Shown: piece by piece, positions 4,146-64,000 of the stretch
How positions within the stretch are numbered: position 1 is the stretch's first letter
How the letters are laid out: the number at the start of each line of letters is the position of its first letter
Source of the DNA: a virus
Lineage: Duplodnaviria > Caudoviricetes
Length of the DNA stretch: 64,000 bases
Reading direction: 5' to 3' (one strand)
Virus record (IMG/VR): IMGVR_UViG_2887198475_000005
Location: 4,425-68,424 of that record
The notes under the pieces: generated by a model
Databases searched by the model: none
Told to the model about the DNA's origin: nothing
The model's input: the letters and a program-made list of their open reading frames with translations, nothing else
Position numbers and translations under genes: made by a program

Positions 4146-7100
4146 ATGTCTTCGGAAAACGAGAAAGTCAATGATGCCGCTGTAGGCATCGAAGACAGCG
4201 CACGCGCGGAAAGCAGGCCGACCGGCCAGACCACCGAAATCCTATACCAGCAGGGCGAGAGCATCTTCGGGCTCCACGGCAGGGCGCTGGTCGCCCGTGG
4301 CTGGTCGGTGTTCCCGCAGGAAGTCGACGGCCGCCGGCCGGGCCGGGTGTTCCAGCAGACCATCAAGTGGGCCGAGGACCACCACCTCCGAGATTGCCTT
4401 CCGGCTCCCGACGTCCTTGACCTCTGGTGCGGTCACTGCGCCACGCTGAACGTCGCCTGCGTGTTCGGGCCCGCGAGCGGCAACGCGTTCGCGGTCGACA
4501 TCGACTGCATGGACGAGGTCCGTTCCAACGCCATCATGGAGCTTGCCGAGGAGCACCTCGGGCCGACCACGTTCATGCGCGAGGGCCGTGCACCCAAGCT
4601 GGCGCTGCTCTACCGCACGACTCCCGGCGACATGCCGCCCTCGTTCTCGCGCAACTTCGAGGCTAGGGACGGCTTCGGGCGGCCAGAGAAATCCGGCGAC
4701 GGCCTCGAAATCCTGTCGTCGGGCAAGCTGATCACCATCTACGGCCGCCACCACAAGACGGGCAGGTATTTCCAGTGGATGTCGCCGACGGCGCAGCCGC
4801 TGACGGCGGGCCCGGAGGCGCTGCCGCTGGTGACCTCCGAGCAGGTCGCCACTTTCCTGGAGGCGGTCGCCGATAAGTTCCCGTTCTGGCATGGCACCTC
4901 AGCCCCCGCCGCCTGGGTGCAGGGTGACGCCTCGGTGCACGGCGTGCGGGGCGCCCGCATGCGTGGCGGCAGCTATCCGCGCAACGAGGACGGCCTGGTG
5001 TTCGAAGGGCGCGACGGGTTCATGCGCGACCTGGTGCTGCGCATCGTCGCGGACGCCTCCAACTGGCCCGGCGAGCCTAAGGAGCATGGCGCCGACGCGG
5101 GGCTCTTCGCGGCGTTCTGCGAGGCAGTGGAATCGTCCTTCCGCGAGGGCGCGGTCATCGACGGCCGCTGGGCCCGCGAGCGCGACCTCAAGGCGACCAT
5201 TGCCGAGAAGGTCTCGCGGACCATGCGTAACGTCGCGAGCGGGCATCTGCGGACCTACTTCGCCGGCCCGGCGCTCCCGGCCGCCGTTCCTGGGCAGGCG
5301 CTGCCCGCGCAGATGAGCGCCGCCGAGGCGTCGGCCGCCCTGACCGCGCTGGTCCGCGAGCACGTCGCGGCCGCCGCCGCCTGGGTCGCCGCCAAGCGCG
5401 TCGGCGAGCCGCCCGCCCTCGCCATCAAGGGCATGGCCTCCCTCGGCAAGACCGTCGCCATCCTGCAAGCCCTGGCGACCCCCGAGTGCGAGGGGCTGCG
5501 GGTGCTCTACGCGGCCCCGACCCTCAAGCTGGCCGAAGACGTGGCCAAGGCCGCCCGCCAGCTCGGGATCGACGTCCGTGTGCTACGGGGCCGCTCACAG
5601 CCGCGCCCGGACGACCCGGACTCCAAGATGTGCGCCAAGGCGGACATCGCCGAGATGCTCGCGCAGCTCTCCGCCCCGGTGAAGACGACCCTGTGCCGCC
5701 AGCCCTGCAAGAAGGGCGACGAGCCCAAGGAGTGCCTCTTCGCGGCGACCTGCCCCTACCTGGCGCAGATCGAGGCGCTCAAGGACCGCAAGTCCGGGCC
5801 GACCCTCTGGGTCTGCGCCCACCAGTACCTGTCGACCCCGCTGGAGGGGCTCACCGAGAAAGCCTTCGACCTCCTGGTCGTCGACGAGTCCTTCTGGCGA
5901 GCCTTGACCCGGACGGTGTCCGTCGACCCGGCGGCCTTCCTGACCGTGCGCGAGCCGGGTGAGAAGCTGCATGCCCGCAAGGGGGAGGACCGCGGCGACT
6001 TCGAGCTGCGCCGCAACGGCATGACCGTCCGGCACGCCGGGCTTCTCGACAAGGTCCGCGCCATCCTGCTGGACAACCCCCGCAAGACCATCTCGCTCGC
6101 CGACTTCCGCGCCGCCGGCCTTGACGCCGAGGAGTGCGAGTGGGCGGCGGGCTTCGAGTACACTAGGCTCGGCTCGCCGGACATCACGCCAGACATGGAC
6201 GAGGCTGAGCAGCTGGCGATTGTCTCAAGGGCACGCCGCGAGGAGGCGTTCGGCTTCGCCCGCTTCTGGCGCGTGCTCGGCGCCGAGCTTGCCCTCGAGC
6301 GAGACCAGCTGGTCGGCATCGAGCGGGTCCACGGCCGCTGGAACGAAGAGACGGAGCAGCTCGAGAACGGGATCCTACTTCACTACTCGGCGGACCCGCG
6401 CCTGACCGAGCTGCCTGTGATCCTGATCGACGCCGACCTCGACCCGGAGATCGCCTGCCGCTTCTACCCGCGTGTGCAGGGCAACATCCACGTCATCGCG
6501 GCCGCGTGGTCCCCGCGCTGCCGGGTGCGGCAGGTCGGCGAGCGCCCGGTCAGCAAGTCCATGCTGCTGGGCCGCCCCGGCTCCAAGTCCGAGACCGACC
6601 GCGCCGAGGCCCGCCGCGAGGACCTCTGGAACATGATGCTCGACATGGCCGACCGGCACGGCCACCCGTCCGACATGTCCGGCGCGACGGCCAAGGCCCG
6701 CGCCCGGCGCCCGCTGCTGATCACCTTCCTCGGCGTGCGGCAGGCTTGGGCCAAGCGGGGTCGGCTCGGCACCCCGGAGCTCCCGCTGGCGACCCCGGAC
6801 TCCCTGCCGTTCGACGTGGCCCACTTCAACGCGAATCGCGGCCTGGACGGCTGGAAGGAGACCACGGGCATCGTGGTGGCGGGCCGCCTGCAGCCGTCCG
6901 TCGGCGCCATCGAGTCCCTTGCCCGCGGCATCTTCTTCCGCGACCCCCGGCCGCTGGCGCTGCTGCCGTTCGCGCGGGACGGCCGCGGCGACCGGACGGA
7001 CGAGAAGGACTGGCCGACCACGATCCGATACATCCAGCTCCGCGACGGTCGGCGGGTGCCCGTCTCCGTTCCTGCGCACACCGACCCGCGGTGCGACGCC

Positions 7101-8396
7101 GTCCTGCTGCAGGTCCGCGACGCCGAGATCACGCAGTCCCTGGCGCGCTGCCGCCCGATCCACCGCGCCGAGGACGCGCCCTGCGAAATCGTGCTCGCCA
7201 CGAGCGTCCCTGTCGACGGACTCATCGTCGACGAGCTGGTGACCTGGAACGACCTCGTGCCGAGCAAGCTCCGCATGATGGAGGTCGAGGGCCGGGTCAT
7301 TCCCGAGAACGCGACCGACATGGCGGCGGCCTATCCCGACCTTTGGAAGAGTCCGGATGCCGTGCGGGTAGCCCGTGCCACCGCGAGGGAGAAATCGTTG
7401 ACCGCCTCGACGGCAGAGGAAAGTCTGTTGACGATAAACGTAAGCGAGTCTCCTATTATATATAGAACCGACTGGCTTACGTTTATTGCCAACAAATTTG
7501 GCGAGGTTAACAGAATTGCCCGTTGGGTGGAGGTGACCTACGACCGGGTTACCCCCGGAGGCACCCGCCATCGCCGTTCCCGCGCCGCTGTCCGGGTTCG
7601 CTCTGGCGATACGTGCGCTGACGTGCTTGGCCGGGCAAGCAAGGCGTTGCCGTTCGCCTCCCGGCTGTCCCTCGCCGACGGCGCTGCCGATGTCATTGCT
7701 CTCGCCGCCACGCCCGCCCCGGCGGCTTCCGAGCCCCCGGCCGCCGCGCCGCTCCCAGCCGCCCAGGAAGACCCACAGGCGGCCGGGAGCGAGATCCGGC
7801 TGCCGGAGGGCGTCCCGGCGCCTGCAGCGCCGCAGGCGCCCGCGAGCGCGCCGCGCAAGGGCATCCGGCGGGCCGGGCGTCCTGGCGCTGGCTCGGCGAC
7901 CGCAGGAGCCCCGGCGGCTTCGACTGTGCAGGACCGCCACCGGGTGTCCGTCCTCGACCTCATCCGGTCTGCCGCCTCGCCCGAGGACGCTGACGCGTCC
8001 ACCTCAGCCGCCCCGGTGATCGTCTCCGCCGCCCCCATGCCGATGGCCGCCGGGCATCTCGAAGCCGTCGTGGCGCCCACCGCTGCCCCGCCGGCGGTCG
8101 TGCTGGCAGGGTTCCCGGCCGTCGCCGGGGACCAGGAGGACGGTGACGACGAGGAGGGGCTGGACTGGTCGCCAGACGCCGAGCCGTTGCTCGCGGACCG
8201 CCTCGAGTGGTGCAGGGCGACCCTGCAGGCGCTGGCCGTCGAAGCGTGGGGCGACCTCAGCTACGCGCACGCTTGGCTCTACAGCGCCCACCCGGATTTC
8301 GGATGGCAGGCGCCCCTGGACGCGTGCGTGTCCGTCCGGGCGCTCGAGCGATGCCGTGCAGCCCTCGAACGGGAAACCGCCGCCACGGTCCACTGA
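4146..8396 (+). CDS. Multidomain replication protein: N-terminal Prim-Pol, helicase-like P-loop region, C-terminal MbcA/ParS/Xre-like domain
   Basis: GWSVFP, AVDID and YGRHHKTGRYFQW (Prim-Pol); GMASLGKT Walker A; Cys cluster; LVVDES Walker B; NRGLD and QSLARCR helicase-type motifs; C-terminal AWGD..AHAWL..AHPDFGWQAPLD. ATG at 4146 preferred over TTG at 4101. Confidence 0.8.
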   Translation: MSSENEKVNDAAVGIEDSARAESRPTGQTTEILYQQGESIFGLHGRALVARGWSVFPQEVDGRRPGRVFQQTIKWAEDHHLRDCLPAPDVLDLWCGHCATLNVACVFGPASGNAFAVDIDCMDEVRSNAIMELAEEHLGPTTFMREGRAPKLALLYRTTPGDMPPSFSRNFEARDGFGRPEKSGDGLEILSSGKLITIYGRHHKTGRYFQWMSPTAQPLTAGPEALPLVTSEQVATFLEAVADKFPFWHGTSAPAAWVQGDASVHGVRGARMRGGSYPRNEDGLVFEGRDGFMRDLVLRIVADASNWPGEPKEHGADAGLFAAFCEAVESSFREGAVIDGRWARERDLKATIAEKVSRTMRNVASGHLRTYFAGPALPAAVPGQALPAQMSAAEASAALTALVREHVAAAAAWVAAKRVGEPPALAIKGMASLGKTVAILQALATPECEGLRVLYAAPTLKLAEDVAKAARQLGIDVRVLRGRSQPRPDDPDSKMCAKADIAEMLAQLSAPVKTTLCRQPCKKGDEPKECLFAATCPYLAQIEALKDRKSGPTLWVCAHQYLSTPLEGLTEKAFDLLVVDESFWRALTRTVSVDPAAFLTVREPGEKLHARKGEDRGDFELRRNGMTVRHAGLLDKVRAILLDNPRKTISLADFRAAGLDAEECEWAAGFEYTRLGSPDITPDMDEAEQLAIVSRARREEAFGFARFWRVLGAELALERDQLVGIERVHGRWNEETEQLENGILLHYSADPRLTELPVILIDADLDPEIACRFYPRVQGNIHVIAAAWSPRCRVRQVGERPVSKSMLLGRPGSKSETDRAEARREDLWNMMLDMADRHGHPSDMSGATAKARARRPLLITFLGVRQAWAKRGRLGTPELPLATPDSLPFDVAHFNANRGLDGWKETTGIVVAGRLQPSVGAIESLARGIFFRDPRPLALLPFARDGRGDRTDEKDWPTTIRYIQLRDGRRVPVSVPAHTDPRCDAVLLQVRDAEITQSLARCRPIHRAEDAPCEIVLATSVPVDGLIVDELVTWNDLVPSKLRMMEVEGRVIPENATDMAAAYPDLWKSPDAVRVARATAREKSLTASTAEESLLTINVSESPIIYRTDWLTFIANKFGEVNRIARWVEVTYDRVTPGGTRHRRSRAAVRVRSGDTCADVLGRASKALPFASRLSLADGAADVIALAATPAPAASEPPAAAPLPAAQEDPQAAGSEIRLPEGVPAPAAPQAPASAPRKGIRRAGRPGAGSATAGAPAASTVQDRHRVSVLDLIRSAASPEDADASTSAAPVIVSAAPMPMAAGHLEAVVAPTAAPPAVVLAGFPAVAGDQEDGDDEEGLDWSPDAEPLLADRLEWCRATLQALAVEAWGDLSYAHAWLYSAHPDFGWQAPLDACVSVRALERCRAALERETAATVH
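7426..7494. other. Candidate replication origin: 25-bp imperfect inverted repeat with AT-rich loop
   Basis: Arms 7426-7450 and 7470-7494 match at 22/25; loop TCCTATTATATATAGAACC; sharp AT-rich island inside the GC-rich rep gene. Confidence 0.65.
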
Positions 8397-8535: not shown

Positions 8536-9243
8536 ATGGCCGCGAAGCGGAAGCGGGAGCCCAAGCAGCAGTCGACGTCCACGGGCAGGCGCGTCCCCTG
8601 GCACGTTCGCCACGATGACCGCCAACCCCTGAATGGCGGCGCGCCGTCGGATGTCGCGCCCATCGAGCGCTGGGACCACGGCGAGCGCGTGGTCGCCGAA
8701 CCAGCGCCCGGTTCCCGCATCCGTGTCGAACGCGCTGGATCCGGGATCGACGCCCTCCTCGCCAACGGGACGATCGACAACCGGCTCGCCAACGCGGCCT
8801 CGCTCTGGCAGCGCGACTACGAAGGCGCGCTGTGTGTCGGGCAGGGGGCCGCTCCGGCTTCGGACCGCGTGAGAGTTGACACGTCGGTGACGGCGACGGA
8901 CGGCGGCATCGTGCGGCGGCTGGACGCCGCGACGCGTTACCGCGAAGCGTGTGCGGCCATCGGACTGCTCGGTGATGCCCTGCTGCAGCTCACGGTCGCT
9001 GCCGGGCTGTCGCTGTCGCGCCTGGAGGCTGTCCTGACGCCTTCCACCGGCGCCGCCGGCGCACTGCCGCCCGAGCTGCAGGCGGTCGCCGCGCGCGTCC
9101 GGCGGCTGAACCGCGTGGCGCTCGTCGGCGCACTCGTGGCAACCCTTGATCGCCTCGCCGACCACTACGACGCCGTTGACCGGGAACATGCCGCGGCCGC
9201 GCGCACCCGTCGGGCGGCTGCGGGGCGGGGAGACGCGGCATGA
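8536..9243 (+). CDS. DUF6456-like putative transcriptional activator
   Basis: LLANGTID...QRDYE...YREACAAIG...GLSL...LDRLADHY pattern; lies right after the replication gene; GGGGAGG RBS. Confidence 0.55.
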   Translation: MAAKRKREPKQQSTSTGRRVPWHVRHDDRQPLNGGAPSDVAPIERWDHGERVVAEPAPGSRIRVERAGSGIDALLANGTIDNRLANAASLWQRDYEGALCVGQGAAPASDRVRVDTSVTATDGGIVRRLDAATRYREACAAIGLLGDALLQLTVAAGLSLSRLEAVLTPSTGAAGALPPELQAVAARVRRLNRVALVGALVATLDRLADHYDAVDREHAAAARTRRAAAGRGDAA

Positions 9244-9746: not shown

Positions 9747-9967
9747 GAGCGCGCAAGAAGGCGGCTGCGCTGCCGGAGGACTACGAGCCGGACGAGAGGG
9801 CGCAAGGCTCCTTGGCGCGGGCCCTGGGCATGCCGCTGGCCGCCAATCCGTTTCTAACCGAAACGCGCGCCTGGATGGCCTGGTGCCAGGGCTGGCTCGA
9901 CAGCGACGTGCTGATGTCCGGCAGCCCGGGCACGACGTCCGCGAGGAACGGAGGAGTGCCGTGGTGA
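9743..9967 (+). CDS. Small Rmf/CrpP-like protein
   Basis: G..ARALG....NPF......W..GW pattern. Confidence 0.5.
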   Translation: MRARKKAAALPEDYEPDERAQGSLARALGMPLAANPFLTETRAWMAWCQGWLDSDVLMSGSPGTTSARNGGVPW

Positions 9968-10485
9968 AGCAGGCCCAGTTCGGCTGGAACCCGGACTACG
10001 CGGTGCCGCCTGGTGCGGTGATTGCCGAGCACCTGGAGGTGCGGGGCTGGAGTGAGGCCGATTTGGCGCGCCGTATCGGATGCCAGCCGCAGATGGTCAG
10101 CGAGATGATTTCCGGCGAGAGCCCTGTTGATCCGACGACGGCGTGCGCCCTTGAGCGCGTGCTCGGGGTGAAGGCCGAAATCTGGACGAACATGGGGGCG
10201 AACTGGCGGACCTTCCGGGCGCGGACACTCCCGAGGACGCCTACGTGCGCGAGGGCGCCGGCGATGAATGAGACGCCGCTTCCCGACGCGACCTGCCCCG
10301 CATGCGGCGCCCTTGGCGGCGTGGTCCGCTTCGAGCGCCGCGAGGGCGAGGTCGTACGGGGCGTTGTTCTCGAGGTCACCAAGACCCTGCGTCGGTGCGC
10401 CGCATGCGGGGAGGAGTTCGAGAATAGCCGCGACCCGGATTGGCGCGCGGGTGCTTACGCCCGGCTCCGGGCGGACAAGGACTGA
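9964..10485 (+). CDS. HigA-family HTH fused to an MqsA/YgiT-type zinc ribbon
   Basis: PPGAVIAEHL...SEADLARRIG...ALERVLG...WTN, then CPACG...CAACGEEF; GGAGGAG RBS before the GTG. Confidence 0.7.
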   Translation: MKQAQFGWNPDYAVPPGAVIAEHLEVRGWSEADLARRIGCQPQMVSEMISGESPVDPTTACALERVLGVKAEIWTNMGANWRTFRARTLPRTPTCARAPAMNETPLPDATCPACGALGGVVRFERREGEVVRGVVLEVTKTLRRCAACGEEFENSRDPDWRAGAYARLRADKD

Positions 10486-10512: not shown

Positions 10513-11250
10513 ATGCCAGCGAACAGCATTCCCTACGAACTGGCGGTGATCCCGGAGCGCTCGCCCGGGCCGCTGCTACGCGCCCTTGGTGCCCGCCGCT
10601 TCGACGGCAGGACCATCCGGTTCACCTGGGGCGAATGGACGCCCGGCTGGGGGCTGGTCCTCAGGCTCAGGAAATGGTCGGCAGTCTATGGCGGCGGTTG
10701 GTCGCTCTTCGTCCAGCCGGGATACGGGAAGCTCCGTGTCTCCCTCCCGCTCCCTCGACGCGAAGTGAAGGGCGAGGGTGCCTGGGGCTTCCAGGCCGAC
10801 CTGGGGGGAGGCAATGTGCACGTCCAGTGGGGCTACGGGCACCCGGGGAAGGTCTACGACCTCCCGTGGCGCGCCTGGCGCTGCGAGCGGCACGACGTAT
10901 TGGCCGTCGGCGGCTGGGTGCCATGCCCGGAAATCTTCGCGGGCCGGATGGATAACCCGCTGGCCGCGACCGAGACGCACCCCTATCGCTACGTGACGGA
11001 CAGCGGCGAGGTGCAGGAGGTGACCGCTACGATCGCCGTCGAGGAGCGCGAGTGGCGGCTGTCGTGGCTCCGGTGGCTGCCGTGGGTCCGGCGCGTAAGC
11101 CGGACGATCGAGGTGTCCTTCAGCGATGGGGTCGGCGAGCAGCGCGGCTCCTGGAAGGGCGGCACGGTCGGCTGCAGCTACGAGATGCAGCGGGGCGAGA
11201 CGCCAGCCGAATGCCTGCGCCGGATGCAGCGCGAGCGCCGCTTTCGGTAG
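10513..11250 (+). CDS. Hypothetical phage protein (Trp/Gly-rich)
   Basis: GGGAGG RBS; phage-like codon usage. Confidence 0.7.
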   Translation: MPANSIPYELAVIPERSPGPLLRALGARRFDGRTIRFTWGEWTPGWGLVLRLRKWSAVYGGGWSLFVQPGYGKLRVSLPLPRREVKGEGAWGFQADLGGGNVHVQWGYGHPGKVYDLPWRAWRCERHDVLAVGGWVPCPEIFAGRMDNPLAATETHPYRYVTDSGEVQEVTATIAVEEREWRLSWLRWLPWVRRVSRTIEVSFSDGVGEQRGSWKGGTVGCSYEMQRGETPAECLRRMQRERRFR

Positions 11251-11747: not shown

Positions 11748-12223
11748 GCACCAAGTCCGTTACCTCGTGCCGTGCCGACCAAGCCGCGATGCGCGGCGCC
11801 ATCTCCGCCATGCGCAAGCTGGCCGAGCGCCCGGACGCCATCGGCCGTGCCATTCGGGACGCCGAAGGCAGCGTTCGCGAGGATGCACGACGGGATGTCG
11901 AGCGCGCCATCCTGAAGGGGTTCACGTCGCCCGCACCGGATGCAGACGACGTGGAACGGCGCACGCTGTTCTTTGCGGCTAGGGATACCTTGGCGGCACT
12001 CAATGCGGCGACGTCTGCCAGGTATGCGGCCTGGCACCGCAAAGTCGCGGTTGAGCGGGAGTGGAAGACTGGCGCCCTGCGGGACCCCCGCGCTGTCGCT
12101 GACGCCTGCAAGGCAGCCCGTTCCGCCGACCGGGCCGAGGCGCGCGCACTGGAAGCCTGGGCGGCGGCGGACGACGCGCTGACGGCGTTCCGGGCGAGGA
12201 CGGGCAGGAGGACCGCGCCATGA
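11744..12223 (+). CDS. Hypothetical protein
   Basis: ATGA-coupled at both ends. Confidence 0.65.
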   Translation: MSTKSVTSCRADQAAMRGAISAMRKLAERPDAIGRAIRDAEGSVREDARRDVERAILKGFTSPAPDADDVERRTLFFAARDTLAALNAATSARYAAWHRKVAVEREWKTGALRDPRAVADACKAARSADRAEARALEAWAAADDALTAFRARTGRRTAP

Positions 12224-12492
12224 TTGGCGGCAAGGTCATTGAGGTCCGCCGCGAGGGCGAGGTCGCCCGCGTCTGGTGCGTCGACGGCTGGGACGAGCTG
12301 GCCATCCACGTCGTCGCTGAGGCGGACCTTCCGGCGCCAAGCGATACCGTGTGGTGGCAGGGGCGGGCGGCCTACTGGACCGACGCGGCCCGCACGTTCG
12401 CGGACCGCCGGCTTGATCGCCGGGGCTACAGCTTCGACCCGAGGAACGCCCTGGGCGCGCATGACGCCCGGACGAACGGAGGTTCATCGTGA
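12220..12492 (+). CDS. Hypothetical protein
   Basis: Translationally coupled; AGGAGG RBS. Confidence 0.65.
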   Translation: MIGGKVIEVRREGEVARVWCVDGWDELAIHVVAEADLPAPSDTVWWQGRAAYWTDAARTFADRRLDRRGYSFDPRNALGAHDARTNGGSS

Positions 12493-12878
12493 GCCATGTC
12501 AACATTCACGACATCCGTGATGCCGTTGCAGCCCTCGTCGAAGGCAGCCGGGGGCAAATGAGCGGCCCCTACACCGCCTTCGTGTCGCCAGAGGTTCACG
12601 CGGCCGTCCTGGAGGCGTACCCGGATGGCGTCGTGCGGCTGACCGACGGCACGGCGGTCCAGGTTCGCGAAGTGGCTCCGTTTGCCGATGATGCCGAAGA
12701 GGCCGAGGACGGCGACTGGGCGGACGCGGCGGCGGCCGACATCCTCGACGAGCTGTCCACGCGGCGGGGCATCGGCGACGAACTCGGGCTTGTGGACGAC
12801 GACGTGCTCGAGGAGATCCGCGACAGCATCGCCACCATCATCCGCGACGCCGCCGAGGCTGCGAAGGCCGCCCCATGA
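12489..12878 (+). CDS. Hypothetical acidic protein
   Basis: GTGA-coupled; GGAGG RBS. Confidence 0.65.
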   Translation: MSHVNIHDIRDAVAALVEGSRGQMSGPYTAFVSPEVHAAVLEAYPDGVVRLTDGTAVQVREVAPFADDAEEAEDGDWADAAAADILDELSTRRGIGDELGLVDDDVLEEIRDSIATIIRDAAEAAKAAP

Positions 12879-13159: not shown

Positions 13160-13174
13160 TCGGGGGGCGGTGAG

Positions 13175-13543
13175 ATGCTGGAGGCAGACATGGCTGACGA
13201 TGAGGACCGTTGGGTGCGCGTGATGCCCGACCACTGCAGCTCGGGGCTGTGGTGGAAAGACGGCTGCATGATGGATCCGGAAGACCTGCCGATCAGCGGC
13301 GCCCTGCGGGAACGGCTGGCCACGTGGGCGGATGGATACAGCGCGTGCATCGACCACTTGCCGGACGGGTCGCCCGTGCCATTCGACGAGACCGCCTACG
13401 CCGCCGAGGGGCTGGCCATCGCGCAGGCCATCAAGGCCGAGCTGCCCGGGTGGACCGTCATTTACTTCGACATCAGCAAGCTCGACGACAGCCAGGAGGA
13501 CCAGCCCCGCGGCGAGTTCGAGTACGAGGTGACGCCGCCATGA
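13175..13543 (+). CDS. Hypothetical acidic protein
   Basis: Globular-looking sequence (WVRVMPDH...LPISGALRERLATW); coupled to the next ORF. Confidence 0.7.
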   Translation: MLEADMADDEDRWVRVMPDHCSSGLWWKDGCMMDPEDLPISGALRERLATWADGYSACIDHLPDGSPVPFDETAYAAEGLAIAQAIKAELPGWTVIYFDISKLDDSQEDQPRGEFEYEVTPP

Positions 13544-14004
13544 CCGCCCGTCATGCTGTTGCCGAGGTTCGCCGCCCGGACGCAGGGTTCGGCCGCCGGG
13601 TGGCCAGGGCGCTGGCCTTCTTTGCCGCGCTCGCGTCCGTGCCAGTGGCGGCTGTCCGCCGTATCGGTGGGGAGCGCGCGCCGTCGGCGGAGGTCCGGCG
13701 CGCCGGATCCGAGTTCCGCGACGTGGTGGCCGCTCTGGCTGGCTTGGCGGCGGCACCGGTCACCGGGAACGCCGAGCGTGGCTGGGATGTCGTTCGGGCC
13801 CACGACGGCTCTGCCGTTTGGGTGCTCACCGCCGGCCCGGAGGGTGAGCAGAGCCTGCTTGCATCCGTTCAGCGCATGCCGGGCGGCGAGGGTTGGAGCG
13901 CCGTTGTGGCGCGTCTGGGGCAGCTGTGCGTCGTGCTGGCGGCCTCGCGCGCGGATGCGCAGATGGCGGCCGAGATGCTTGTGGGCGGCGCGCACGTCGA
14001 GTGA
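13540..14004 (+). CDS. Hypothetical protein
   Basis: ATGA-coupled start inside track ORF 13210-14004. Confidence 0.55.
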   Translation: MTARHAVAEVRRPDAGFGRRVARALAFFAALASVPVAAVRRIGGERAPSAEVRRAGSEFRDVVAALAGLAAAPVTGNAERGWDVVRAHDGSAVWVLTAGPEGEQSLLASVQRMPGGEGWSAVVARLGQLCVVLAASRADAQMAAEMLVGGAHVE

Positions 14005-14035
14005 GGCGGCTCGAGAAGAAACGGAGGGAACGAGA

Positions 14036-14641
14036 ATGTATCAGTTCAACTTTGTGGACCCGCATGCCGCATTCCTCGGCGCGCTGACGCGCGCTCTCGA
14101 GGGCCGCGATGGCGTCTCCGCGACGGCTGGCCTCCTGCAGCCAACCGGCTGGGATGCCCTCATTGCTGCAGGGAATTCGTTCGGCATGATGGACGGCGGT
14201 GTCGACCTTGCCATCGCCAGGATGCTTCCCGGCGTCGAGGGGCGCGTGCGGGCGGCGATTGCATCCGAACACGGCGGCTTCCTGCCTGTCGGGGCGGCAG
14301 TGGCCGTGCCTGCGGATGGCGATCTGGTGACGGGCCGCTGGCTGCTCTACGCGCCGACCATGGAGTCCCCACGGGACATCCGCGGCTCGGTCAACGCCTA
14401 CCTTGCGATGCACGCGGCTATCGGTGCCGCGAGACGGATCCCGCTCCCGGCCGGGACGACCATCGCGTGCACGGGCCTGGGCACGGGGGTCGGACGGCTG
14501 CCGCCCGAGGTGGCCGCGCGGCAGATGGCGCTGGCCATTCGGCATGCGGAGGGCGCGCCTCCGGCCAGCTGGCGCGATGCGCTGGGGCGTCTCGTCGATG
14601 TCGAGTGCGCCCGCTGGGGGTTGACGAGGGCGGCTGCATGA
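14036..14641 (+). CDS. Macrodomain (ADP-ribose processing) protein
   Basis: DALIAAGNSFGMMDGGVDLAI, APTM and GLGTGVG macro signatures; GGAGG RBS. Confidence 0.9.
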   Translation: MYQFNFVDPHAAFLGALTRALEGRDGVSATAGLLQPTGWDALIAAGNSFGMMDGGVDLAIARMLPGVEGRVRAAIASEHGGFLPVGAAVAVPADGDLVTGRWLLYAPTMESPRDIRGSVNAYLAMHAAIGAARRIPLPAGTTIACTGLGTGVGRLPPEVAARQMALAIRHAEGAPPASWRDALGRLVDVECARWGLTRAAA

Positions 14642-15724: not shown

Positions 15725-17170
15725 GTGACCATCGAGGACATCGTCGAAATGCTCCGTACCGACGCAGCCACCGCCGCCAGCAGCCCGCTCGGCCAACTCG
15801 TCCTTTCCGCCGCTCGCAGGCTCGAGCACGGCGGCGACATGCCGGTGGGCGCCAGGCGGAGACTCTCGTCCGAGCAGGCGTTCGCGGCCATGACCGTCTG
15901 CACCAGGATGGTGCGGACCCACGGTCTGCAGCCCTCGACCGTCTGCAAGGAGGCGGGGCTGGTGGAGGAAGCGAGCGGCACTTTTCGCTACATGCTCACG
16001 GCCAGGGAAATGACGCCAATCGGCGAACTGGTTCAGGGTGCCGCCGCCAGACGGGACATCTCGAAGAAGCTCCAGCGCTACGTCCAGATCGTCCGGACGG
16101 TCGCCCGGCTGGCGGGGAAGGAGGAGCTTCCGCTTCTGGAGGACCTCGGCGTGGCGGTGGCAGACTACCTCGCCCCGTTCAACGAAGAGACGTCCGCCCC
16201 CCATGACGAACTCGCGGCTGACCTCATCGCGCTGGGTACTTACTTCGGCAGGGCGCGGGAGGGGACAGGCGGCGAGCTGATCGACCTCAAGGAGTTCTTC
16301 GAGGCGAGCGGGCGAATGGGGGTGATCTACGACCCGGCGACCAACGGCATGGTCGCCTTGCCTGATGACCCTGTCGACCTCGGCCACGAACCCTCCGTGC
16401 GGCTTTTCATGCGCCGCGTCGCCTCGGGTCAGGGCGAGTGCTACCGCCACGAGCGGAACCCCTCCGGCTTCCCGGTCTATATCAGCCGGGAGATCGGGCG
16501 CGTTCGGTTTCAGGTCTACGAGGTGGTCTCGCTCGCCCTGGTGAGGAACAGGGACAAGATCCGCGCTGTCCTGGTCGCCGAGCCGTGGACAATGGTTCAG
16601 GACAGGCCGGGCGAGCCGCCCGCGCGCTTCTTCGACCGCTCGGCCCGGCGCTGGGAGCAGGGAGTGCCGTTCGGCGGAGGCATCCGCGTCGGAGAGGGCG
16701 AGGGCCAGTTCTCCTTGATGGCCGGCACGAATGTCGCGTTCGCCTGTCCCCTGTATGAGCAGTACATCAGGGAACTCGAAGGGGATGGCGAGAGCGAGTT
16801 TGGGAGCGGCTTGGTCGCCGAGGTGGTCTGCACGCCGCGTCGTATCGAGATCGACCCTGAGGTTCTCCGCGTCTACCTCGAGGACGTCGCCGCTTACGAA
16901 CCGCGTAAGGCATTGGAGTTCATGGAGGCGAGCGCGCCCTGGGCGCAGGGCTACGTCGTCCAGGCGACGCTGACGCATGCGGACGGCCGGGAGGCGAACA
17001 GCCTTCTCGAACGTCTGGAAGATGCCCTCTATGGCGACGGGAACGCCATCCTTGCGGCGCTGCTCGACCAGGTGACCAAGCGCGTCCGCGCGCTCGATGA
17101 CCTCATGGCTAAGACCCTGACGACGCGGCAGGCCCAGAAGACGCATTTCCGTCGCCTCATGCGCAGCTGA
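15725..17170 (+). CDS. Hypothetical 481-aa protein
   Basis: Long ORF with AGGAGGT RBS and normal amino-acid composition; no family recognised. Confidence 0.85.
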   Translation: MTIEDIVEMLRTDAATAASSPLGQLVLSAARRLEHGGDMPVGARRRLSSEQAFAAMTVCTRMVRTHGLQPSTVCKEAGLVEEASGTFRYMLTAREMTPIGELVQGAAARRDISKKLQRYVQIVRTVARLAGKEELPLLEDLGVAVADYLAPFNEETSAPHDELAADLIALGTYFGRAREGTGGELIDLKEFFEASGRMGVIYDPATNGMVALPDDPVDLGHEPSVRLFMRRVASGQGECYRHERNPSGFPVYISREIGRVRFQVYEVVSLALVRNRDKIRAVLVAEPWTMVQDRPGEPPARFFDRSARRWEQGVPFGGGIRVGEGEGQFSLMAGTNVAFACPLYEQYIRELEGDGESEFGSGLVAEVVCTPRRIEIDPEVLRVYLEDVAAYEPRKALEFMEASAPWAQGYVVQATLTHADGREANSLLERLEDALYGDGNAILAALLDQVTKRVRALDDLMAKTLTTRQAQKTHFRRLMRS

Positions 17171-17267: not shown

Positions 17268-18119
17268 CTATCTGGGAAGCAACGCCGCACGCAACCCGGC
17301 CGCGACGGCGCGCAATGCGGCCGCGCTGGTCGGCGCGCCCGCCCGGCCGAACAGCACGATTTCCGATGCCGGCAACGGCGGCAGTCCCAGCGTCGGCCCG
17401 GCATCCGGCGCATCGCCGGAAGCGGCACGTCCCATGGGCGCCACCCCCAGCCCCGCTCGCGCGCCAGCAAGCAGCGCCGCGCAACCTCCGCCGAGAAAAG
17501 CCTCCTGCCAGGCGATCCCCGCCCGTTCGAGGGCGCGCAGCGCCGCGGCCCGCACGCCGCAGGGAGGCGCGAGCGTCGCCAGCGGCACCGGCTCACCCGG
17601 GCAGAGCCTGAACCCGTCCGCCGCGCGCCAGCCAAGCGGGTCGGTTCCCAACACCTCGCCCTCGCTGCCGCCCGCCTCGCGGCGGATCACCACGGCGTCG
17701 ATCTCGCCGGCGTCGAAAGCGGCCCGCAACGGCTGCGACTGCCCGGTCCGCACCTCGACCGTGGCGCCGCAGGGCAGCGCCGCCCGCACCCGCCGCAGCA
17801 CGCTTTCCAGGCCGACGCCGATGGCGTGCTCACTCAGGCCGATCGCGAAACGCACGGCAGGGGTCGGCGTGAACCGCACTGCTGCGTCGTGGGCGGCGAG
17901 GAGCGCACGGGCGCGTTCGAGGAAGGCGGCTCCGTCCGGGGTGGGGCGCACGAAGCGCGGCGTGCGCTCCAACAGCCGCCGTCCGAGCGCCGCCTCCAAC
18001 GCCTTCAGGCGCTGGCTGACGACAGGCTGCACCGTGCCGGCCGCCTCGGCCGCGCGGGTGAGGTTGCCGAAATCGGTCGCGAGGACGAAGAGGCGGACGG
18101 ATTCAAGGTCGAGCATCAT
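17268..18119 (-). CDS. LysR-family transcriptional regulator
   Basis: GNLTRAAEAAGTVQPVVSQRLKALEAALGRRLLER HTH signature. Confidence 0.95.
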   Translation of the reverse strand: MMLDLESVRLFVLATDFGNLTRAAEAAGTVQPVVSQRLKALEAALGRRLLERTPRFVRPTPDGAAFLERARALLAAHDAAVRFTPTPAVRFAIGLSEHAIGVGLESVLRRVRAALPCGATVEVRTGQSQPLRAAFDAGEIDAVVIRREAGGSEGEVLGTDPLGWRAADGFRLCPGEPVPLATLAPPCGVRAAALRALERAGIAWQEAFLGGGCAALLAGARAGLGVAPMGRAASGDAPDAGPTLGLPPLPASEIVLFGRAGAPTSAAALRAVAAGLRAALLPR

Positions 18120-18214
18120 AATATTCTACTATGATGAGAAGCTATCTTCATAGCGTTCCGCGTTCCATCGGGGCGGGCCACGATGCGGCCGATCCCAATG
18201 AGGAGACGCATCCG

Positions 18215-24754: not shown

Positions 24755-24829
24755 TGGTCGGCGGGGCCGGATTCGAACCGGCGCATGGACAGTTATGAGC
24801 TGTCGGCTCTGCCGCTGAGCTACCCGCCG
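24755..24829 (-). tRNA. tRNA with CAT anticodon (elongator Met or Ile2), CCA encoded
   Basis: Full cloverleaf: acceptor CGGCGGG/CCCGCCG, D arm GCTC/GAGC, anticodon arm GACAG-CTCATAA-CTGTC, T arm GCCGG-TTCGAAT-CCGGC, ACCA end. Confidence 0.95.
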
Positions 24830-24842
24830 ATCTCTGCCGCCC

Positions 24843-25403
24843 TCAATTCGTTCCGGCTGCCCGTTCCTCCGCTCGCCGCCGGACGTCGGCCCACGTCCGC
24901 CAGAGCGACATGGCATCCTCGAGCGCGCGGTGATGTACGCGCTGTCGGCGTTCTTCCTCGACCTGCGCGGCGGCCACGAGTTGCCTGGCGGTCGCTACAA
25001 GGTCGTCGCCAGCGAGCACGGCGTGCAACGGGCGGCACGCGGCGGCGTACGCTTCGTAGACATCTCGCAAAGGGATGCGGGGAGCCGACGACGATGCGGC
25101 GAGCAGCTCGTCGAGCCACATCTGGTCGTGGCCTGGCACGTCGGAATAGACGCGGGCAGCCGGATCTCCGAGGACGGTGATGAGACGGTTCGCTACCCAG
25201 ACCGCCTCGTGGCCGTCGCGCTGCAGATGGGCGCGCGTGATACCGTGGATGCTCTGGGACGCGGGCGACCAATCACACCAGTCCGGCTCAGGGCGAATCA
25301 GGTAGCTCTCGCCCCTGCCGTCCTCGCCGACCCAGGCGACCTCGATCGGGTAGCTGTCGGTGGAGAGGGAGGACGCCTCGAAGTCGATGAAGAACACGCT
25401 CAT
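24843..25403 (-). CDS. DEDDh (DnaQ-like) 3'-5' exonuclease
   Basis: FIDFEAS (Exo I), IHGIT, HDQMWL (Exo II), HRALEDA (Exo III). Confidence 0.85.
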   Translation of the reverse strand: MSVFFIDFEASSLSTDSYPIEVAWVGEDGRGESYLIRPEPDWCDWSPASQSIHGITRAHLQRDGHEAVWVANRLITVLGDPAARVYSDVPGHDQMWLDELLAASSSAPRIPLRDVYEAYAAACRPLHAVLAGDDLVATARQLVAAAQVEEERRQRVHHRALEDAMSLWRTWADVRRRAEERAAGTN

Positions 25404-27376
25404 TGCAGAACTTCCTTCGGAACGCAGGCATTTCCCGCCGCCCCGGCGACGACCGCGCGCAGCTCGTCGCCCGTCAATACCTCACGGACCGCCAGTGCCT
25501 CGGCGACGGCCTCGACCTCCGCGCGCCGCCGCCGAACGACATCAATGGCGGCGGCATAGGCGTCGGCGAGCCGCGCCTCGACGCGCTCCGCGAGCGCGCG
25601 GTTTAGCCCGAGCAGCGAGCCGACATTCTCTGCGGTCGGGTCCGCAATCCACGTCAGCCGACCTCCGAGCCCCCAGGCCGCCTCTGCCGACGCGGCGATC
25701 ACTGTCGCTTGCGAGAGGTCCGAGCTAGCCGAGCCGCCTGCGCCGCCACCCGGTTCGCCGAGCAGGACTTCCTCGGCGGCGCGCCCGGCCATCAGGTCGA
25801 CGAGGACCGCGCGGACGTCGGCGGCGGTTGTGGCCATCCTGGGGGCGTCGCTTTCAATGGCCCCGGCCATCGTCCCAGTTGCTCGGATGCCCACGTGCCA
25901 CACACGGCGGCCGTGCTGCATCATGACGACGGCGTGCCCCGCCTCGTGGACAGCCGCCCGCCGCAGGATTTCCGGTGAACGCTTGCCGCCCTCGTTGTCG
26001 CGGATTTCCGCGATCAGGTCGGCCAGCACGAGGCGGCGCCCGGCGTGCCGGGCACGGCGGCGAGCGCCGCGGGACCACCGCTCGCAGTCAGCGCCGGAGC
26101 CGCCCAAGGCAAGGCGGGCGGCCTGGGAAAGATCGAGGCCGTCCGCATCGGCGCCGAGGTGCTCTTGCAGGATGCGCTCAAGCGCCGGGGCGTCCGGCAA
26201 GCCCAGGCGCAGCACGCGGTCGAGGCGGCCAGCGCGACGCAGGGCGGGGTCAACGCGCTCGGGGAAGTTGCTGGCCGCGAGCACGATGACGCCCTCGCGA
26301 GATGCAAGGCCGTCCATCTCCGCGAGGAGCGCGTTCGTCAGCGGGGCGAACCAGCTTTCGTTGTGGCCCGCCTGACCGCGGCCGATGAGCGAGTCGATTT
26401 CGTCGATGAAGAGAATGCAGGGCGCCTGCGAGCGCGCGAGCGCGAAGTCCTGGCGCATGCGGCCAATAATCTCGGTGTAGCTGCCCTTGCCGTCCTCGCC
26501 GCTTTTCCATTTGCTGTAGCTGGCGGGAATCAATGGCACGCCCGCACTTGCAGCGAGCGCGGCCGCGAACGTGGTCTTGCCGCAGCCGGGTGGCCCGCAC
26601 AGCAGCGCGCCGCGGTCCATGTCCTTCCACGCCAGCCGTCCGGCCTGGCAGTCGGCGATGTCGCGGCAGGTAGAATTGCCCCACGCAACCGCTTCATCGC
26701 AGCCATGCAGGCGGGCCAAGGTCCACTCGGAACGTGCGTGTTTGGGGCGCTCAACGAGTTCCCCGAGGCGGCGCACGTAGTCCGCGGACGCCATGCTTGG
26801 CCGCCATGCCAGCCGCATCACGACGGGTGTCAGGTGGCGCGCCACGTCGTCGGGCACGCCTGCAGCGTCTCCAGAGGTCATCTTGGCGACGACAGAGGCG
26901 ACGACGGCGCTCGTGATTTCGGAGCAGTCGAGCGTTGCCTGGGCGGCGCGCAGGAGCACGGAGGGGAAATCCGTGTCCAGGCGTGCCGACACGAGCACGA
27001 GCATGCCGTCCTTGTTGCCGAGACGCATGGCGTTATTGATGGCGTCAGTGTGTTCGGACGGGGATACCCGTGCCCGGTCACTTCCAAAGCGGTCAGGCCG
27101 CTTGAGGACTTTGCATACCCCGACGCTGGGGATGGCGCACGCCTTGGTCTCGACCACATCAGCGAGTGCTGACGTCCATTCGTCCGACGGTGAGCGTACG
27201 ACTACGATGGACGCGTTCGCCCAGTCGGGCGCGCGCTCGATTGCAGCGGCCGTTAGGGCGTCGACGAGCAGACGCGCCGGGTCGGGCGGCAGCCGGAGGT
27301 CCGCGGCAATCTGAGCTTCGATGGTGGCGATATCAACGTCTTCGACGTCGTCTTCGTCGGAAGGCATAGCAGGCAC
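25400..27376 (-). CDS. Soluble FtsH-like AAA+ ATPase / M41 metalloprotease
   Basis: GPPGCGKT, FIDEID, AASN, DPALRRAGRLD, HEAGH, MAGRAAEE, SDL; no transmembrane segments visible. Confidence 0.9.
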   Translation of the reverse strand: MPAMPSDEDDVEDVDIATIEAQIAADLRLPPDPARLLVDALTAAAIERAPDWANASIVVVRSPSDEWTSALADVVETKACAIPSVGVCKVLKRPDRFGSDRARVSPSEHTDAINNAMRLGNKDGMLVLVSARLDTDFPSVLLRAAQATLDCSEITSAVVASVVAKMTSGDAAGVPDDVARHLTPVVMRLAWRPSMASADYVRRLGELVERPKHARSEWTLARLHGCDEAVAWGNSTCRDIADCQAGRLAWKDMDRGALLCGPPGCGKTTFAAALAASAGVPLIPASYSKWKSGEDGKGSYTEIIGRMRQDFALARSQAPCILFIDEIDSLIGRGQAGHNESWFAPLTNALLAEMDGLASREGVIVLAASNFPERVDPALRRAGRLDRVLRLGLPDAPALERILQEHLGADADGLDLSQAARLALGGSGADCERWSRGARRRARHAGRRLVLADLIAEIRDNEGGKRSPEILRRAAVHEAGHAVVMMQHGRRVWHVGIRATGTMAGAIESDAPRMATTAADVRAVLVDLMAGRAAEEVLLGEPGGGAGGSASSDLSQATVIAASAEAAWGLGGRLTWIADPTAENVGSLLGLNRALAERVEARLADAYAAAIDVVRRRRAEVEAVAEALAVREVLTGDELRAVVAGAAGNACVPKEVLQ

Positions 27377-29777: not shown

Positions 29778-30320
29778 ATGGCGAAGAACATCAGCCGCCG
29801 CCGCGCGCCAAACGACCACAGGCGCGCCCTCTTCGTCGCCGAGTATCTCAAGGATCTCAACGCGGTTCAGGCGGCGATCCGCGCCGGATACGAGCCCAGC
29901 ACGGCCGAGCGGTGCGCCTGGCAAATCATGCGCTACCCGGACGTGAAAGCGGCCATCGAAGATGCGATGGCGGACCGCCTCACGCGCATGAAGGCAACCG
30001 CCGACGCCGCGGTGGCCGACCTATTCCGGCGCGCCCGCTACGACCCGCTGGACTACGCCGACATCACCTGCCCGGCCGACCTCGCCAAGCTCACCCCTGA
30101 GCAGCGGGTTCCCATCGAGGGGTGGAGCTACGACCGGGCGGGCAACTTCATCCTCAAGCTGTCCTCGAAGACGTCGAACGGCGAGACGCTGCTCCGTCAC
30201 CTCGGCCAGCTCAAGGACAAGGTCGACCTCGAACACAGCGGCCCTGGCGGCGGCGCCATCCCGACTTCGCTGGAGATCCGGTTCGTGAGGCCGCCTGATG
30301 GGAACGGCAGCAGCGATTGA
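29778..30320 (+). CDS. terS: Terminase small subunit
   Basis: LFVAEYLKDLNAVQAAIRAGY signature; EHSGPGGG C-terminus. Confidence 0.92.
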   Translation: MAKNISRRRAPNDHRRALFVAEYLKDLNAVQAAIRAGYEPSTAERCAWQIMRYPDVKAAIEDAMADRLTRMKATADAAVADLFRRARYDPLDYADITCPADLAKLTPEQRVPIEGWSYDRAGNFILKLSSKTSNGETLLRHLGQLKDKVDLEHSGPGGGAIPTSLEIRFVRPPDGNGSSD

Positions 30321-31558: not shown

Positions 31559-33478
31559 ATGGCACACGCACTCTATGACGCCATCGACGCGACCGCCGCA
31601 GGCCGCCTGGCACACATCAGCCAAGGCAGTCTTGATCCAATCTCGGCGGACGCGGCTCTGTCCGACAGCCTGCGGAACCTGGTGTCCGGACTCGGCACGG
31701 AACGCGACAAGGCCACCCACGGGCGTTTCGCGAACGAGTGGCTCGACAAGTTCCAGCTGGACGCGATGTATCAGTCCGACTGGCTGGCCGGGAAAATCAT
31801 CGACGCCCCTGCCGACGACATGACGCGCGAATGGCGGACATGGAACGGTCCAGCGAGGGCCGTGGCTGCCGTCGATGACGCCGAGGAGGACTTGCGCGTC
31901 AGGGAGCGGGTCAACCACGTGCTCAAGCTGGCCCGCCTCTACGGCGGCGCCGGAATCTACATCGGCGTCGGCGAGGATGCCGATCCGGCCAAGGAGCTCG
32001 ATGTCGCCTCCATCCAGCGCGGAGACATCAGGTATCTGCATGTCCTGAGCCGCTACGAACTCTGGGCGGGCAACATCGACCGCGATCCGGTGTCCCCGTA
32101 CTTCGGCGAGCCTGAGTACTACATGATGTCGTCACCGACCGCAGGGGGCGTGCGGATACATCCCTCGAGGGTGGTTCGCTTCCTCGGTCAGGCCCGCCTT
32201 GAGCTGAGCAGGCAGGTCGACGGCTGGGGGCTTCCGGTCCTCCAGCGCCTCTACGACGCCATTCGCGACGCCGTGGCATCCAACCAGGGTCTCGCGGCCA
32301 TGGTGCAGGAGGCCAAGGTCGACGTCATCAAGGTCAAGGGACTGACGCAGAACGCGGTCGACGAGGGTTGGAGGCGCCGGACGCTGGCGCGGTTCTCCCT
32401 TGCGAACCAGGCCAAGAGCCTGGTCGGAGCGATGCTCCTCGATGCCGAGGAAGCATGGGAACAGAAGAAGCTGTCCCTGGCCGACATGCCCAAGGTCATC
32501 TCCACCTTCCTGGAGATCGCTTCTGGCGCGGCCGACATGCCGGTATCCCGCCTGCTCGGAACCGCTCCTGGCGGCCTGAACAGCACGGGCGAAGCCGACA
32601 TCCGCCACTACTACGATTCCATATCCGCGAGGCAGCGAACCGAGCTGTCGCCTGGCCTGCGCAGGCTGGACGAGGCCATCAAGCGGCACGCGGGGGTCGG
32701 CAAGCGGTCCGTCTCCTATACGTGGAATTCGCTGTGGCAGATGACCGACGCCGAGCGCGCGGACATCGGGCTCAAGAACGCGCAGCGCACGCAGGTCGTC
32801 CGGCAGACCGGCCTTGTCCCCGTTCGGGCACTGGCACAGGCCGAGCGCTCGCGCCTCGTGCAATCAGGGGAATTCCCCGCCCTCGAGGACGCGCTGCAGC
32901 AGTCCGAGGCTCGTCGCGATCCCGACTTCACGATGCCCTCTGCAAGCGCCCAGGCCCCCTCGGAACCGAGGCCGTCTCCAAGGCCGATCGAGGCCGGAGA
33001 CGCCGCAGGCCGCCCGAGGACGCTCTATGTCAGCCGCCCCGTGCTTAACGCCGCCGACATCATCGCATGGGCCCGGTCCCATGGGTTTGCCTCGACGCTT
33101 GAGGCCGACGACCTGCATGTAACGGTCGCATTCTCCCGCAAGCCACTGGATTGGGCGGCGGTCGGGAGCGACTGGGAGACCGTCTCCGTGGCACCGGGCG
33201 GCAAGCGCCAGGTGAAAGCGCTCGGAGACAAGGGGGCGGTCGTTCTTCGGTTCGACAGCGGCGCGCTGACGGAGCGCTGGCGGCAGATCATCGCCGCCGG
33301 GGCCTCGTGGGACCACGACGGCTTCCAGCCGCACGTGACCATCACCTACGCAGGCGGCGACGTCGATCCGGCCTCCGTGCAGCCATACGACGGCCCACTC
33401 GTCCTTGGGGCCGAGCGGTTCGCGGAGGTCAACGAGGACTGGCTGGCCAGAGTCCGCGAAGAGCCGGCTGGCTCGTAG
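31559..33478 (+). CDS. Portal protein (DUF1073-like) fused to an Acb1-like 2H phosphoesterase
   Basis: ARLYGGA, RIHPSR, SRLLGTAPGGLNSTGEADIRHYYD; C-terminal DDLHVTVAFS and FQPHVTITY. Confidence 0.88.
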   Translation: MAHALYDAIDATAAGRLAHISQGSLDPISADAALSDSLRNLVSGLGTERDKATHGRFANEWLDKFQLDAMYQSDWLAGKIIDAPADDMTREWRTWNGPARAVAAVDDAEEDLRVRERVNHVLKLARLYGGAGIYIGVGEDADPAKELDVASIQRGDIRYLHVLSRYELWAGNIDRDPVSPYFGEPEYYMMSSPTAGGVRIHPSRVVRFLGQARLELSRQVDGWGLPVLQRLYDAIRDAVASNQGLAAMVQEAKVDVIKVKGLTQNAVDEGWRRRTLARFSLANQAKSLVGAMLLDAEEAWEQKKLSLADMPKVISTFLEIASGAADMPVSRLLGTAPGGLNSTGEADIRHYYDSISARQRTELSPGLRRLDEAIKRHAGVGKRSVSYTWNSLWQMTDAERADIGLKNAQRTQVVRQTGLVPVRALAQAERSRLVQSGEFPALEDALQQSEARRDPDFTMPSASAQAPSEPRPSPRPIEAGDAAGRPRTLYVSRPVLNAADIIAWARSHGFASTLEADDLHVTVAFSRKPLDWAAVGSDWETVSVAPGGKRQVKALGDKGAVVLRFDSGALTERWRQIIAAGASWDHDGFQPHVTITYAGGDVDPASVQPYDGPLVLGAERFAEVNEDWLARVREEPAGS

Positions 33479-35126: not shown

Positions 35127-35140
35127 AGAGGTCCTCAGGC

Positions 35141-63649: not shown

Positions 63650-64000
63650 GTAAGCGACCTTCCGCAAGGCGCCGCTCCCGTTCCGCGGGGGGCGCTGCCG
63701 TCGATGAGTTCCCGCGATGTGACGCGGGAGCCGATACCTGGAGCGGACCGCCGGTGGCGGTCAGGCGCCAGCTATTCGGGCCGCACGCAGGACGACGGTG
63801 CGGGCCGACATGGCGGTCAGTTCGACGGGAAGGATGGTCTGCAAGGCTGTCTCGCTGGTCATGGGCGTTCGTGCGCCCCGGTATCCATAACCACCGGCCA
63901 TTTCGCGGCGGCCGGATGGCCGCCTCGGGAATCAGGGTATGGAATGATGGATGGACAGCATCAGGGCTATATACCGGATTTCGGTGCGGATGTCGATCGA

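Follow-up and report, generated by a model that had tools for sequence, protein, structure and literature searches.

The closest described relatives of the protein domain considered here are the antitoxins of the RES-Xre type II systems (Xre, MbcA, ParS and NatR; PF09722; structures 6GW6, 6FKG, 6D0H, 8QNL and 8GUG), in which a helix-turn-helix (HTH) region of ~70 residues precedes a helical domain of ~50–70 residues at the very end of the protein. According to a review of these systems, ParS puts its C-terminal carboxylate into ParT's active site, and the C-terminus of MbcA blocks MbcT (PMC7758455). RES is placed in the ADP-ribosyltransferase (ART) superfamily, and some phages are described as carrying RES-HTH toxin-antitoxin pairs (PMC9503650); RES domains are also reported from polymorphic toxins delivered by secretion systems of types II, V and VI (T2SS, T5SS and T6SS; PMC3482391). 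Here we describe a domain of the antitoxin family that forms the C-terminal end, or tail, of a phage replicase. The gene lies in a provirus of the Caudoviricetes, IMG/VR record IMGVR_UViG_2887198475_000005; the analysed window comprises bases 4425–68424 of this 68,424-base record, the completeness of which is estimated at 83% by CheckV. On sequence grounds, the tail is a diverged, genuine member of the DUF2384 family, and it may serve in counter-defence.

RES proteins have lately been connected with phage defence. Standalone RES proteins, termed aRES, are described as acting against phages by phosphorolysis of nicotinamide adenine dinucleotide (NAD+), which is converted to ADP-ribose-1-phosphate (ADPR-1P); the phage counters reported by the same sources are a Macro-domain phosphatase and a small protein, aRad1, which inserts into the active site of RES (bioRxiv 10.64898/2026.01.28.702374; PMC13728456). 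The preprint calls aRad1 a protein without predicted annotation (bioRxiv 10.64898/2026.01.28.702374). According to an editorial, aRES senses the T7 DNA polymerase, and orphan antitoxin-like phage proteins acting against DarTG are cited there as well (PMC13728456).

The replicase gene occupies 4146..8396 of the window on the plus strand, stop codon included. Translation from the ATG at 4146 gives 1416 residues (P0003, the form chosen by the gene caller), and an alternative TTG at 4101 gives 1431. The protein ends in ...ALAVEAWGDLSYAHAWLYSAHPDFGWQAPLDACVSVRALERCRAALERETAATVH; the terminal peptide quoted in the first-pass annotation is indeed found here, at the end of the frame 4101/4146..8396 (+). 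The DUF2384-like (Xre_MbcA_ParS_C-like) helical domain takes up ~70 residues at the extreme C-terminus (8178..8393, +), with the Pfam match proper at 8235–8372, and is preceded by an Ala/Pro-rich linker (7701..8177, +; residues 1186–1344, 159 residues, 27% Ala and 15% Pro), which that annotation had likewise pointed out. Its description of the remainder as "Prim-Pol/helicase" holds for the first half. Thus, the Prim-Pol (bifunctional primase/polymerase) domain (4284..4817, +; residues 47–224) matches PF09250 at E = 1.8e-9 and 38.7 bits, against a cut-off of 22.8, and phrog_1156 (DNA primase) at E = 5.9e-14, while the P-loop/helicase-like stretch (5424..5585, +; residues 427–480) matches PF00270 (DEAD) only weakly, at E = 4.4e-4 and 20.5 bits, under the cut-off of 26.

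The frame of the replicase is unbroken, with no stop codon between linker and tail. The G+C content at third codon positions (GC3), 0.89 over the whole frame, is 0.78–0.90 in the linker and 0.82–0.95 in the tail, the same as in the remainder of the gene. Inspection by eye of the 20 nucleotides preceding either internal ATG (8037 and 8043) revealed no Shine-Dalgarno-like sequence. The possibility that the tail is a separate gene was ruled out by the stop-free frame and by the lack of such a sequence before the internal start codons. Together with the steady GC3, these features indicate that the tail is part of the replicase, one gene rather than two.

The first-pass annotation had noted a resemblance of the tail to the C-terminal domain of Xre/MbcA/ParS antitoxins. 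PF09722 (Xre_MbcA_ParS_C, formerly DUF2384) aligns to residues 1364–1409 of the replicase, from position 2 to position 47 of the 51-position profile, and in a six-frame search the tail scores 22.4 bits. An independent hidden Markov model (HMM) was built from 29 DUF2384 C-domains of alphaproteobacterial genomes, excluding the tail and its nearest relative. It scores the tail at 27.6 bits, compared with 12.3 bits for the best of 2000 residue shuffles (1953 of which were scored at all), and among the 862 six-frame open frames of at least 40 residues in the window the tail is its sole match (E = 5.8e-6; the runner-up has E = 0.18). Comparison by hhalign with nine genomic DUF2384 domains gives a probability of 92%, with E = 6.6e-7 over 58 columns. 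An exhaustive phmmer search with the 80-residue tail against 1.84 billion protein representatives returned five proteins: the query, three repeat proteins that aligned in numerous short segments (two of low complexity and one Big_6 adhesin), and P0034. The last, the only match that is neither repetitive nor the query itself (E = 3.1e-5; 34% identity over 67 residues), itself belongs to PF09722, with a score of 38 bits. In the tail, the columns of the motif (A..W, P..hG..P and L) align. The near-invariant Trp after helix 2 and the near-invariant C-terminal Leu are retained, and so are both Pro residues of the Pro...Gly-Gly...Pro loop and the Gly that comes first in it; the tail stops at the same alignment column as five of ten natural antitoxin C-termini (alignment A3). 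Thus, the resemblance reflects real homology, as judged by the 29-domain HMM, hhalign and phmmer, and we regard the tail as a diverged, genuine family member by sequence, yet one that stays under the Pfam cut-off.

The structure predicted for the tail from a family alignment agrees with this assignment. The AlphaFold2 model, computed from 31 aligned rows, is confident, with a predicted local distance difference test score (pLDDT) of 88.9 and helices at tail residues 9–32, 35–43, 54–57 and 61–79. When this model is compared with folds in the PDB, the top ten chains, as well as those of ranks 12 and 14, are DUF2384 antitoxins (VPA0769, Xre of P. putida, ParS, NatR and MbcA), with TMq of 0.44–0.70 and E-values of at least 0.036. 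It superposes on 8GUG, 9R35 and 6GW6 with TMq of 0.61–0.70 and a root-mean-square deviation of 1.1–2.0 Å, the E-values being only 0.036–0.28. The model is consistent with the homology and is not independent evidence for it.

The genomic setting of the tail differs from that of its relatives. Members of the PF09722 family commonly adjoin a RES gene: in a sample of 301 alphaproteobacterial genomes, PF09722 matched 100 times, and for 81 of these matches a RES match lies no more than 2 kb away. RES itself occurs in 73 of these 301 genomes, and 79 of its 114 matches have PF09722 within 2 kb; the remaining 35 are an upper bound on RES matches that have no PF09722 neighbour, as 21 PF09722 candidates at most were scored per genome. 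In four genomes that carry relatives of the replicase, RES follows eight of nine PF09722 matches. The provirus presents another picture. The whole 68,424-base record contains no match to PF08808 (RES), which extends to the entire provirus the earlier remark that no RES toxin is visible, and neither a downstream RES gene nor an N-terminal Xre-type HTH accompanies the domain, the latter being replaced by the Prim-Pol/P-loop region and the linker. The position of the toxin in a canonical xre-res operon is taken by a gene at 8536..9243 (+) that is not RES; it has no Pfam hit and matches phrog_16492, a family of unknown function. Its look-alikes in the protein atlas carry DUF6456, for which reason it can be called DUF6456-like as a lead only, and in 4 of 26 related loci its homologues adjoin replicases that lack the tail. 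The candidacy of this gene as a hidden toxin partner was rejected on both grounds.

Accordingly, the tail shares with the Xre, MbcA, ParS and NatR antitoxins the size and helical nature of the domain, its place at the very end of the protein, and the A..W / P..hG..P / L pattern, and the model built with the family alignment superposes on them. It differs from them in its N-terminal partner, which is a replicase of 1340 residues with a linker rather than an HTH of ~70 residues, and in being phage-encoded, not autoregulatory, not followed by a RES gene and below the family cut-off in score. Within a family made up overwhelmingly of RES partners, the tail is therefore an orphan. It also shows what marks an orphan antitoxin in a phage: it is phage-encoded, it is homologous to antitoxins, and the record contains no cognate toxin.

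The fusion is rare. None of the 28 homologous replicases contains PF09722, so that the domain is present in 1 of the 29 members of the family; this answers the first-pass annotation, which had suggested surveying such homologues. PF09250, in comparison, is above threshold in 25 of the 29. A tblastn search of 50,697 phage records with the tail (E ≤ 0.01) gave no match, PF09722 was found in none of five related IMG/VR records, and a search with the tail region among proteins of 787–2505 residues retrieved only the replicase itself, the 90% cluster of which consists of two start variants of one sequence. PHROGs has no family for the tail. In BFVD, small phage proteins of 73–136 residues named Xre-antitoxin or DUF2384-like appear only at E-values of 0.09–0.65, and no long fusion is found. 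The full-text literature searched yielded no description of a replicase-DUF2384 fusion, in keeping with the earlier statement that none was known.

Large proteins ending in DUF2384 are uncommon in the sampled alphaproteobacterial genomes as well. The 100 PF09722 matches of the sample are distributed over 72 genomes (one row is from an unpublished genome, G245), and 95 of them lie in open frames of at most 259 residues. Five lie in frames longer than 300 residues, and the idea that these represent common fusions was rejected, three of the five being short genes behind stop-free non-coding sequence of low GC3. The other two, a 717-residue membrane protein and a 484-residue protein, look like real long proteins, both with weak scores. 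Fusion of DUF2384 to large proteins thus exists and is rare. The 717-residue frame (locus L070, 2156–4306, minus strand) has high GC3 almost throughout, and parts of it are hydrophobic and membrane-like. At its end is a DUF2384-like match, which is weak (23.5–27.7 bits), and no RES match lies within 2 kb of it.

The nearest relatives of the tail also belong to a large protein. P0034 is a fragment of the 652-residue protein P0041, in which a CoiA_N zinc ribbon forms the N-terminus and two repeats resembling DUF2384 form the C-terminus, and P0036 is another fragment of it. Like the replicase, this protein carries DUF2384 at the C-terminus of a large non-Xre polypeptide; unlike it, it has an unrelated N-terminal part and two DUF2384-like repeats rather than one. 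Beyond P0034 and P0036 themselves, a search with a profile of the tail and P0034 retrieved only three proteins, which have the unrelated N-terminus of P0034 in common with it. A metagenome scan with P0041 gave no match, and one with the profile of the tail and P0034 gave a single short contig, on which a further family member of ~650 residues was found (L076, 126–1796, +), with no downstream gene. In three genomes, CoiA-like relatives were found that have no DUF2384 part.

The replicase core, on the other hand, has relatives in prophages and islands of Alphaproteobacteria. The Prim-Pol domain of the Thalassospira xianhensis protein (P0007), for example, is 45% identical over 367 residues, and the core is shared up to residue ~1076 (nucleotide ~7373), where the likeness stops. 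These replicases differ from that of the window in their C-terminal ends. Eleven long ones (among P0004–P0016) share a module in the last ~110 residues (...W..K.G..DDRLMP...Y..LG...D.D) that has no counterpart in the window replicase and that hhalign compares with the tail at a probability of 0.1%. That this module might be a diverged DUF2384 was considered and rejected (hhalign probability of 0.4%). Just past the end of replicase homology lies an AT-rich island with an inverted repeat (7421..7499): within 7400–7550 the G+C content is 44–47%, in a gene of ~70%, and the 30-nucleotide arms (7421–7450 and 7470–7499; 83% complementary) are separated by a 19-nucleotide spacer. Possible readings of the island are a replication origin located within the replicase gene and a junction left by recombination.

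We tentatively suggest that the tail is an orphan antitoxin-like counter-defence domain directed against a RES-type NADase of the host, a function that we consider quite possible, though short of probable. The phage would have captured a DUF2384 domain without the N-terminal HTH of the canonical antitoxin and without the cognate RES toxin. Being part of the replicase, the tail would be made early, together with the enzyme, and could then bind a host RES-type (ART-fold) NAD+-consuming effector, either a RES-Xre abortive-infection toxin or a standalone aRES-like protein. In the manner of the C-termini of ParS and MbcA, it would close off the NAD+ pocket, so that NAD+ would not be depleted during replication. 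A counter-defence role is plausible because the phage has further anti-defence genes, one of which is likewise joined to a core protein, and because the literature of 2026 describes RES proteins as phage defence and phage inhibitors that plug the RES active site.

The fused anti-defence gene encodes a portal-Acb1 protein (31559..33478, +), in which Phage_portal_3 (PF06381; residues 66–412, E = 4.3e-101) is followed by the anti-CBASS phosphodiesterase Acb1 (PF23474; residues 487–629, E = 1.6e-39). In at least one case, therefore, a core protein of this phage demonstrably ends in an anti-defence domain. In the passages on Acb1 consulted in the literature, no such fusion is mentioned. A full-length homologue of the CBASS inhibitor Acb3 (10513..11250, +; PF25187, E = 7.8e-69) is encoded 2 kb downstream of the replicase. 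A third gene (13553..14641, +) encodes a 362-residue Macro-domain protein, with PF01661 at residues 206–325 (E = 7.9e-6; 26.3 bits, cut-off 22), an N-terminal half to which no domain is assigned, and a match to phrog_2613 at E = 1.7e-36; phmmer found no relative of it in the PDB. Since a Macro-domain ADPR-1P phosphatase counters aRES, this protein may, by analogy, be a second anti-NADase arm. The genes beside it (12103–12492, 12465–12878, 13160–13543 and 15725–17170) have no Pfam match and so give no pointer to NARP1 genes.

The proposed function has parallels among phage proteins that plug toxins, namely the DarG-like orphans directed against DarTG, TifA, and aRad1, which is directed against aRES. 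As these are described, they are phage-borne, lack a cognate toxin and neutralise a host effector by binding; the tail would resemble them if its own activity is as suggested. They are small free-standing proteins, whereas the tail is tethered to an essential replication enzyme. The likeness between aRad1 and the tail is drawn from published description. Should the tentative counter-defence reading be correct, antitoxin capture would be of a known kind, and the tethering to a replicase would be the new element.

A number of observations weigh against this interpretation, and the first of them touch the homology itself. The similarity might be due to chance, the tail being an unrelated small helical domain. 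The profile search of the last ~70 residues that the first-pass annotation had proposed gave a sub-threshold result, PF09722 matching the 98-residue tail at E = 1.6e-4 and 22.0 bits, under the cut-off of 24.5, and the whole replicase at E = 0.017 and 15.5 bits. NCBIfam NF049845 is far below its cut-off of 90 (E = 0.016; 15.3 bits). Against the PDB, phmmer found no match with the tail alone, and a profile of the tail and P0034 reached an antitoxin chain only at E = 0.42. The motif has diverged, with Gly-Trp in place of the Gly-Gly of the family and Ala in place of the terminal Gly. A model of the tail computed from its single sequence is a generic two-helix hairpin (pLDDT of 74.6), and no antitoxin is among the matches listed when this model is compared with PDB folds; the fold match of the other model is not independent, because that model was built with the family alignment. 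Nevertheless, the shuffles do not exceed 12.3 bits against the 27.6 of the tail, the reciprocal best real match is a family member, the hhalign probability is 92% and the motif columns all align, which makes a chance resemblance very improbable. The other observations concern function. For 19 of the 100 PF09722 matches in the genome sample, no RES lies within 2 kb. The nearest relatives of the tail are the C-terminal domains of a CoiA_N protein. With one sequence cluster only, nothing shows selection for the fusion, and the RES-type target in the host is a putative one.

These functional observations leave room for other roles. The domain might have been re-used as a protein-protein adaptor or regulatory module that has no toxin target and instead recruits a host or phage replication factor or oligomerises. 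The eleven long relatives have a different conserved module at the equivalent position, so that the C-terminus of these replicases seems to be used for a partner function, and an adaptor would agree as well with the CoiA_N proteins, with the family members that have no RES neighbour and with a provirus that has no RES gene. Yet the tail is unlike the module of the relatives, 81% of the sampled family members adjoin RES, and toxin binding is the only role documented for the PF09722 family in the sources consulted (PMC7758455, PMC3482391). We therefore hold an adaptor role to be unlikely, though worth serious consideration. It is less likely still that the tail is a recent passenger without function, joined to the replicase gene as an antitoxin-like 3' end by illegitimate recombination. 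Such an origin would account for the single occurrence (one sequence in two start variants), for the absence of the domain from all 28 relatives and for the end of homology at residue ~1076 beside the AT-rich island and inverted repeat, an arrangement that fits a mosaic junction. Against it stand the completeness of the domain, from helix 1 to the family-typical C-terminal end, the in-frame and stop-free connection, a GC3 equal to that of the remaining gene, and the portal-Acb1 protein, another case in this phage of a core protein joined to an anti-defence domain.

The tail might also act as an addiction or immunity link, neutralising a RES toxin that is encoded elsewhere in the host or comes from competitors, and thereby stabilising the prophage or protecting the lysogen. 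The report of RES domains in polymorphic toxins (PMC3482391) favours this view. So does their occurrence in 73 of the 301 Alphaproteobacteria, with at most 35 of 114 RES matches having no PF09722 within 2 kb. In the lysogen, however, one would expect a lytic phage replicase to be repressed, and an antitoxin made as part of it would be absent when needed; separate expression from the ATGs at 8037 or 8043 finds no support in a Shine-Dalgarno-like sequence, and the 68-kb record contains no toxin. The addiction reading looks weak because no toxin is linked to the gene and because the replicase should be silent in the lysogen; we judge an addiction or immunity link to be decidedly improbable. A particular form of counter-defence, which by analogy with the sensing of a phage polymerase by aRES can be imagined and which we regard as doubtful, would have the replicase carry its own shield. 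Here, a RES defence protein would dock on the replicase or sense it, and the tail, on its flexible linker of ~160 residues, would swing into the RES active site in cis and stop the breakdown of NAD+. The replicase would then be a trigger protein with a built-in inhibitor of its own sensor.

Several other features of the window should be mentioned. A protein with HTH_3 and DUF7340 (9883–10485, +) has a match in phrog_1381, "plasmid antitoxin with HTH domain". A LysR-type regulator (17268–18125, −), a tRNA-Met (24755–24829, −) and an FtsH-like AAA+/M41 protease (25400–27376, −) separate the early region from the structural genes, which include the terminase (30298–31551) and the capsid gene (34967–36136); the provirus may hold host-like cargo or may represent two adjoining elements. 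At the right end of the window, a 999-residue SNF2-family helicase (58957–61956, −) adjoins a gene with a weak HATPase_c_3 match (62198–63667, −). Together they may make up a module, defence-like or epigenetic, that belongs to the host or to the element. The provirus record as a whole carries terminase, portal and capsid genes, and the G+C content of the window is ~69%.

That RES-domain NAD+ phosphorylases act as anti-phage effectors is a very recent finding, and the counters described in the sources cited above are the Macro-domain phosphatase, the NARP2 pathway and aRad1. If the tail acts in counter-defence, the fusion of the host's own RES-antitoxin domain to a phage replicase would be a third counter route and a clear case of antitoxin capture. 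A domain of ~80 residues would, in that event, be a simple reagent that may inhibit RES toxins across systems, and its location should prompt a systematic search of the termini of large core phage proteins for anti-defence domains, which annotation gene by gene misses there. If the replicase does carry its own shield, it would, together with the portal-Acb1 protein, point to a more general tendency to attach anti-defence domains to phage proteins that cannot be dispensed with. If the tail instead binds a replication partner, the roles of DUF2384 would widen beyond the neutralisation of toxins.

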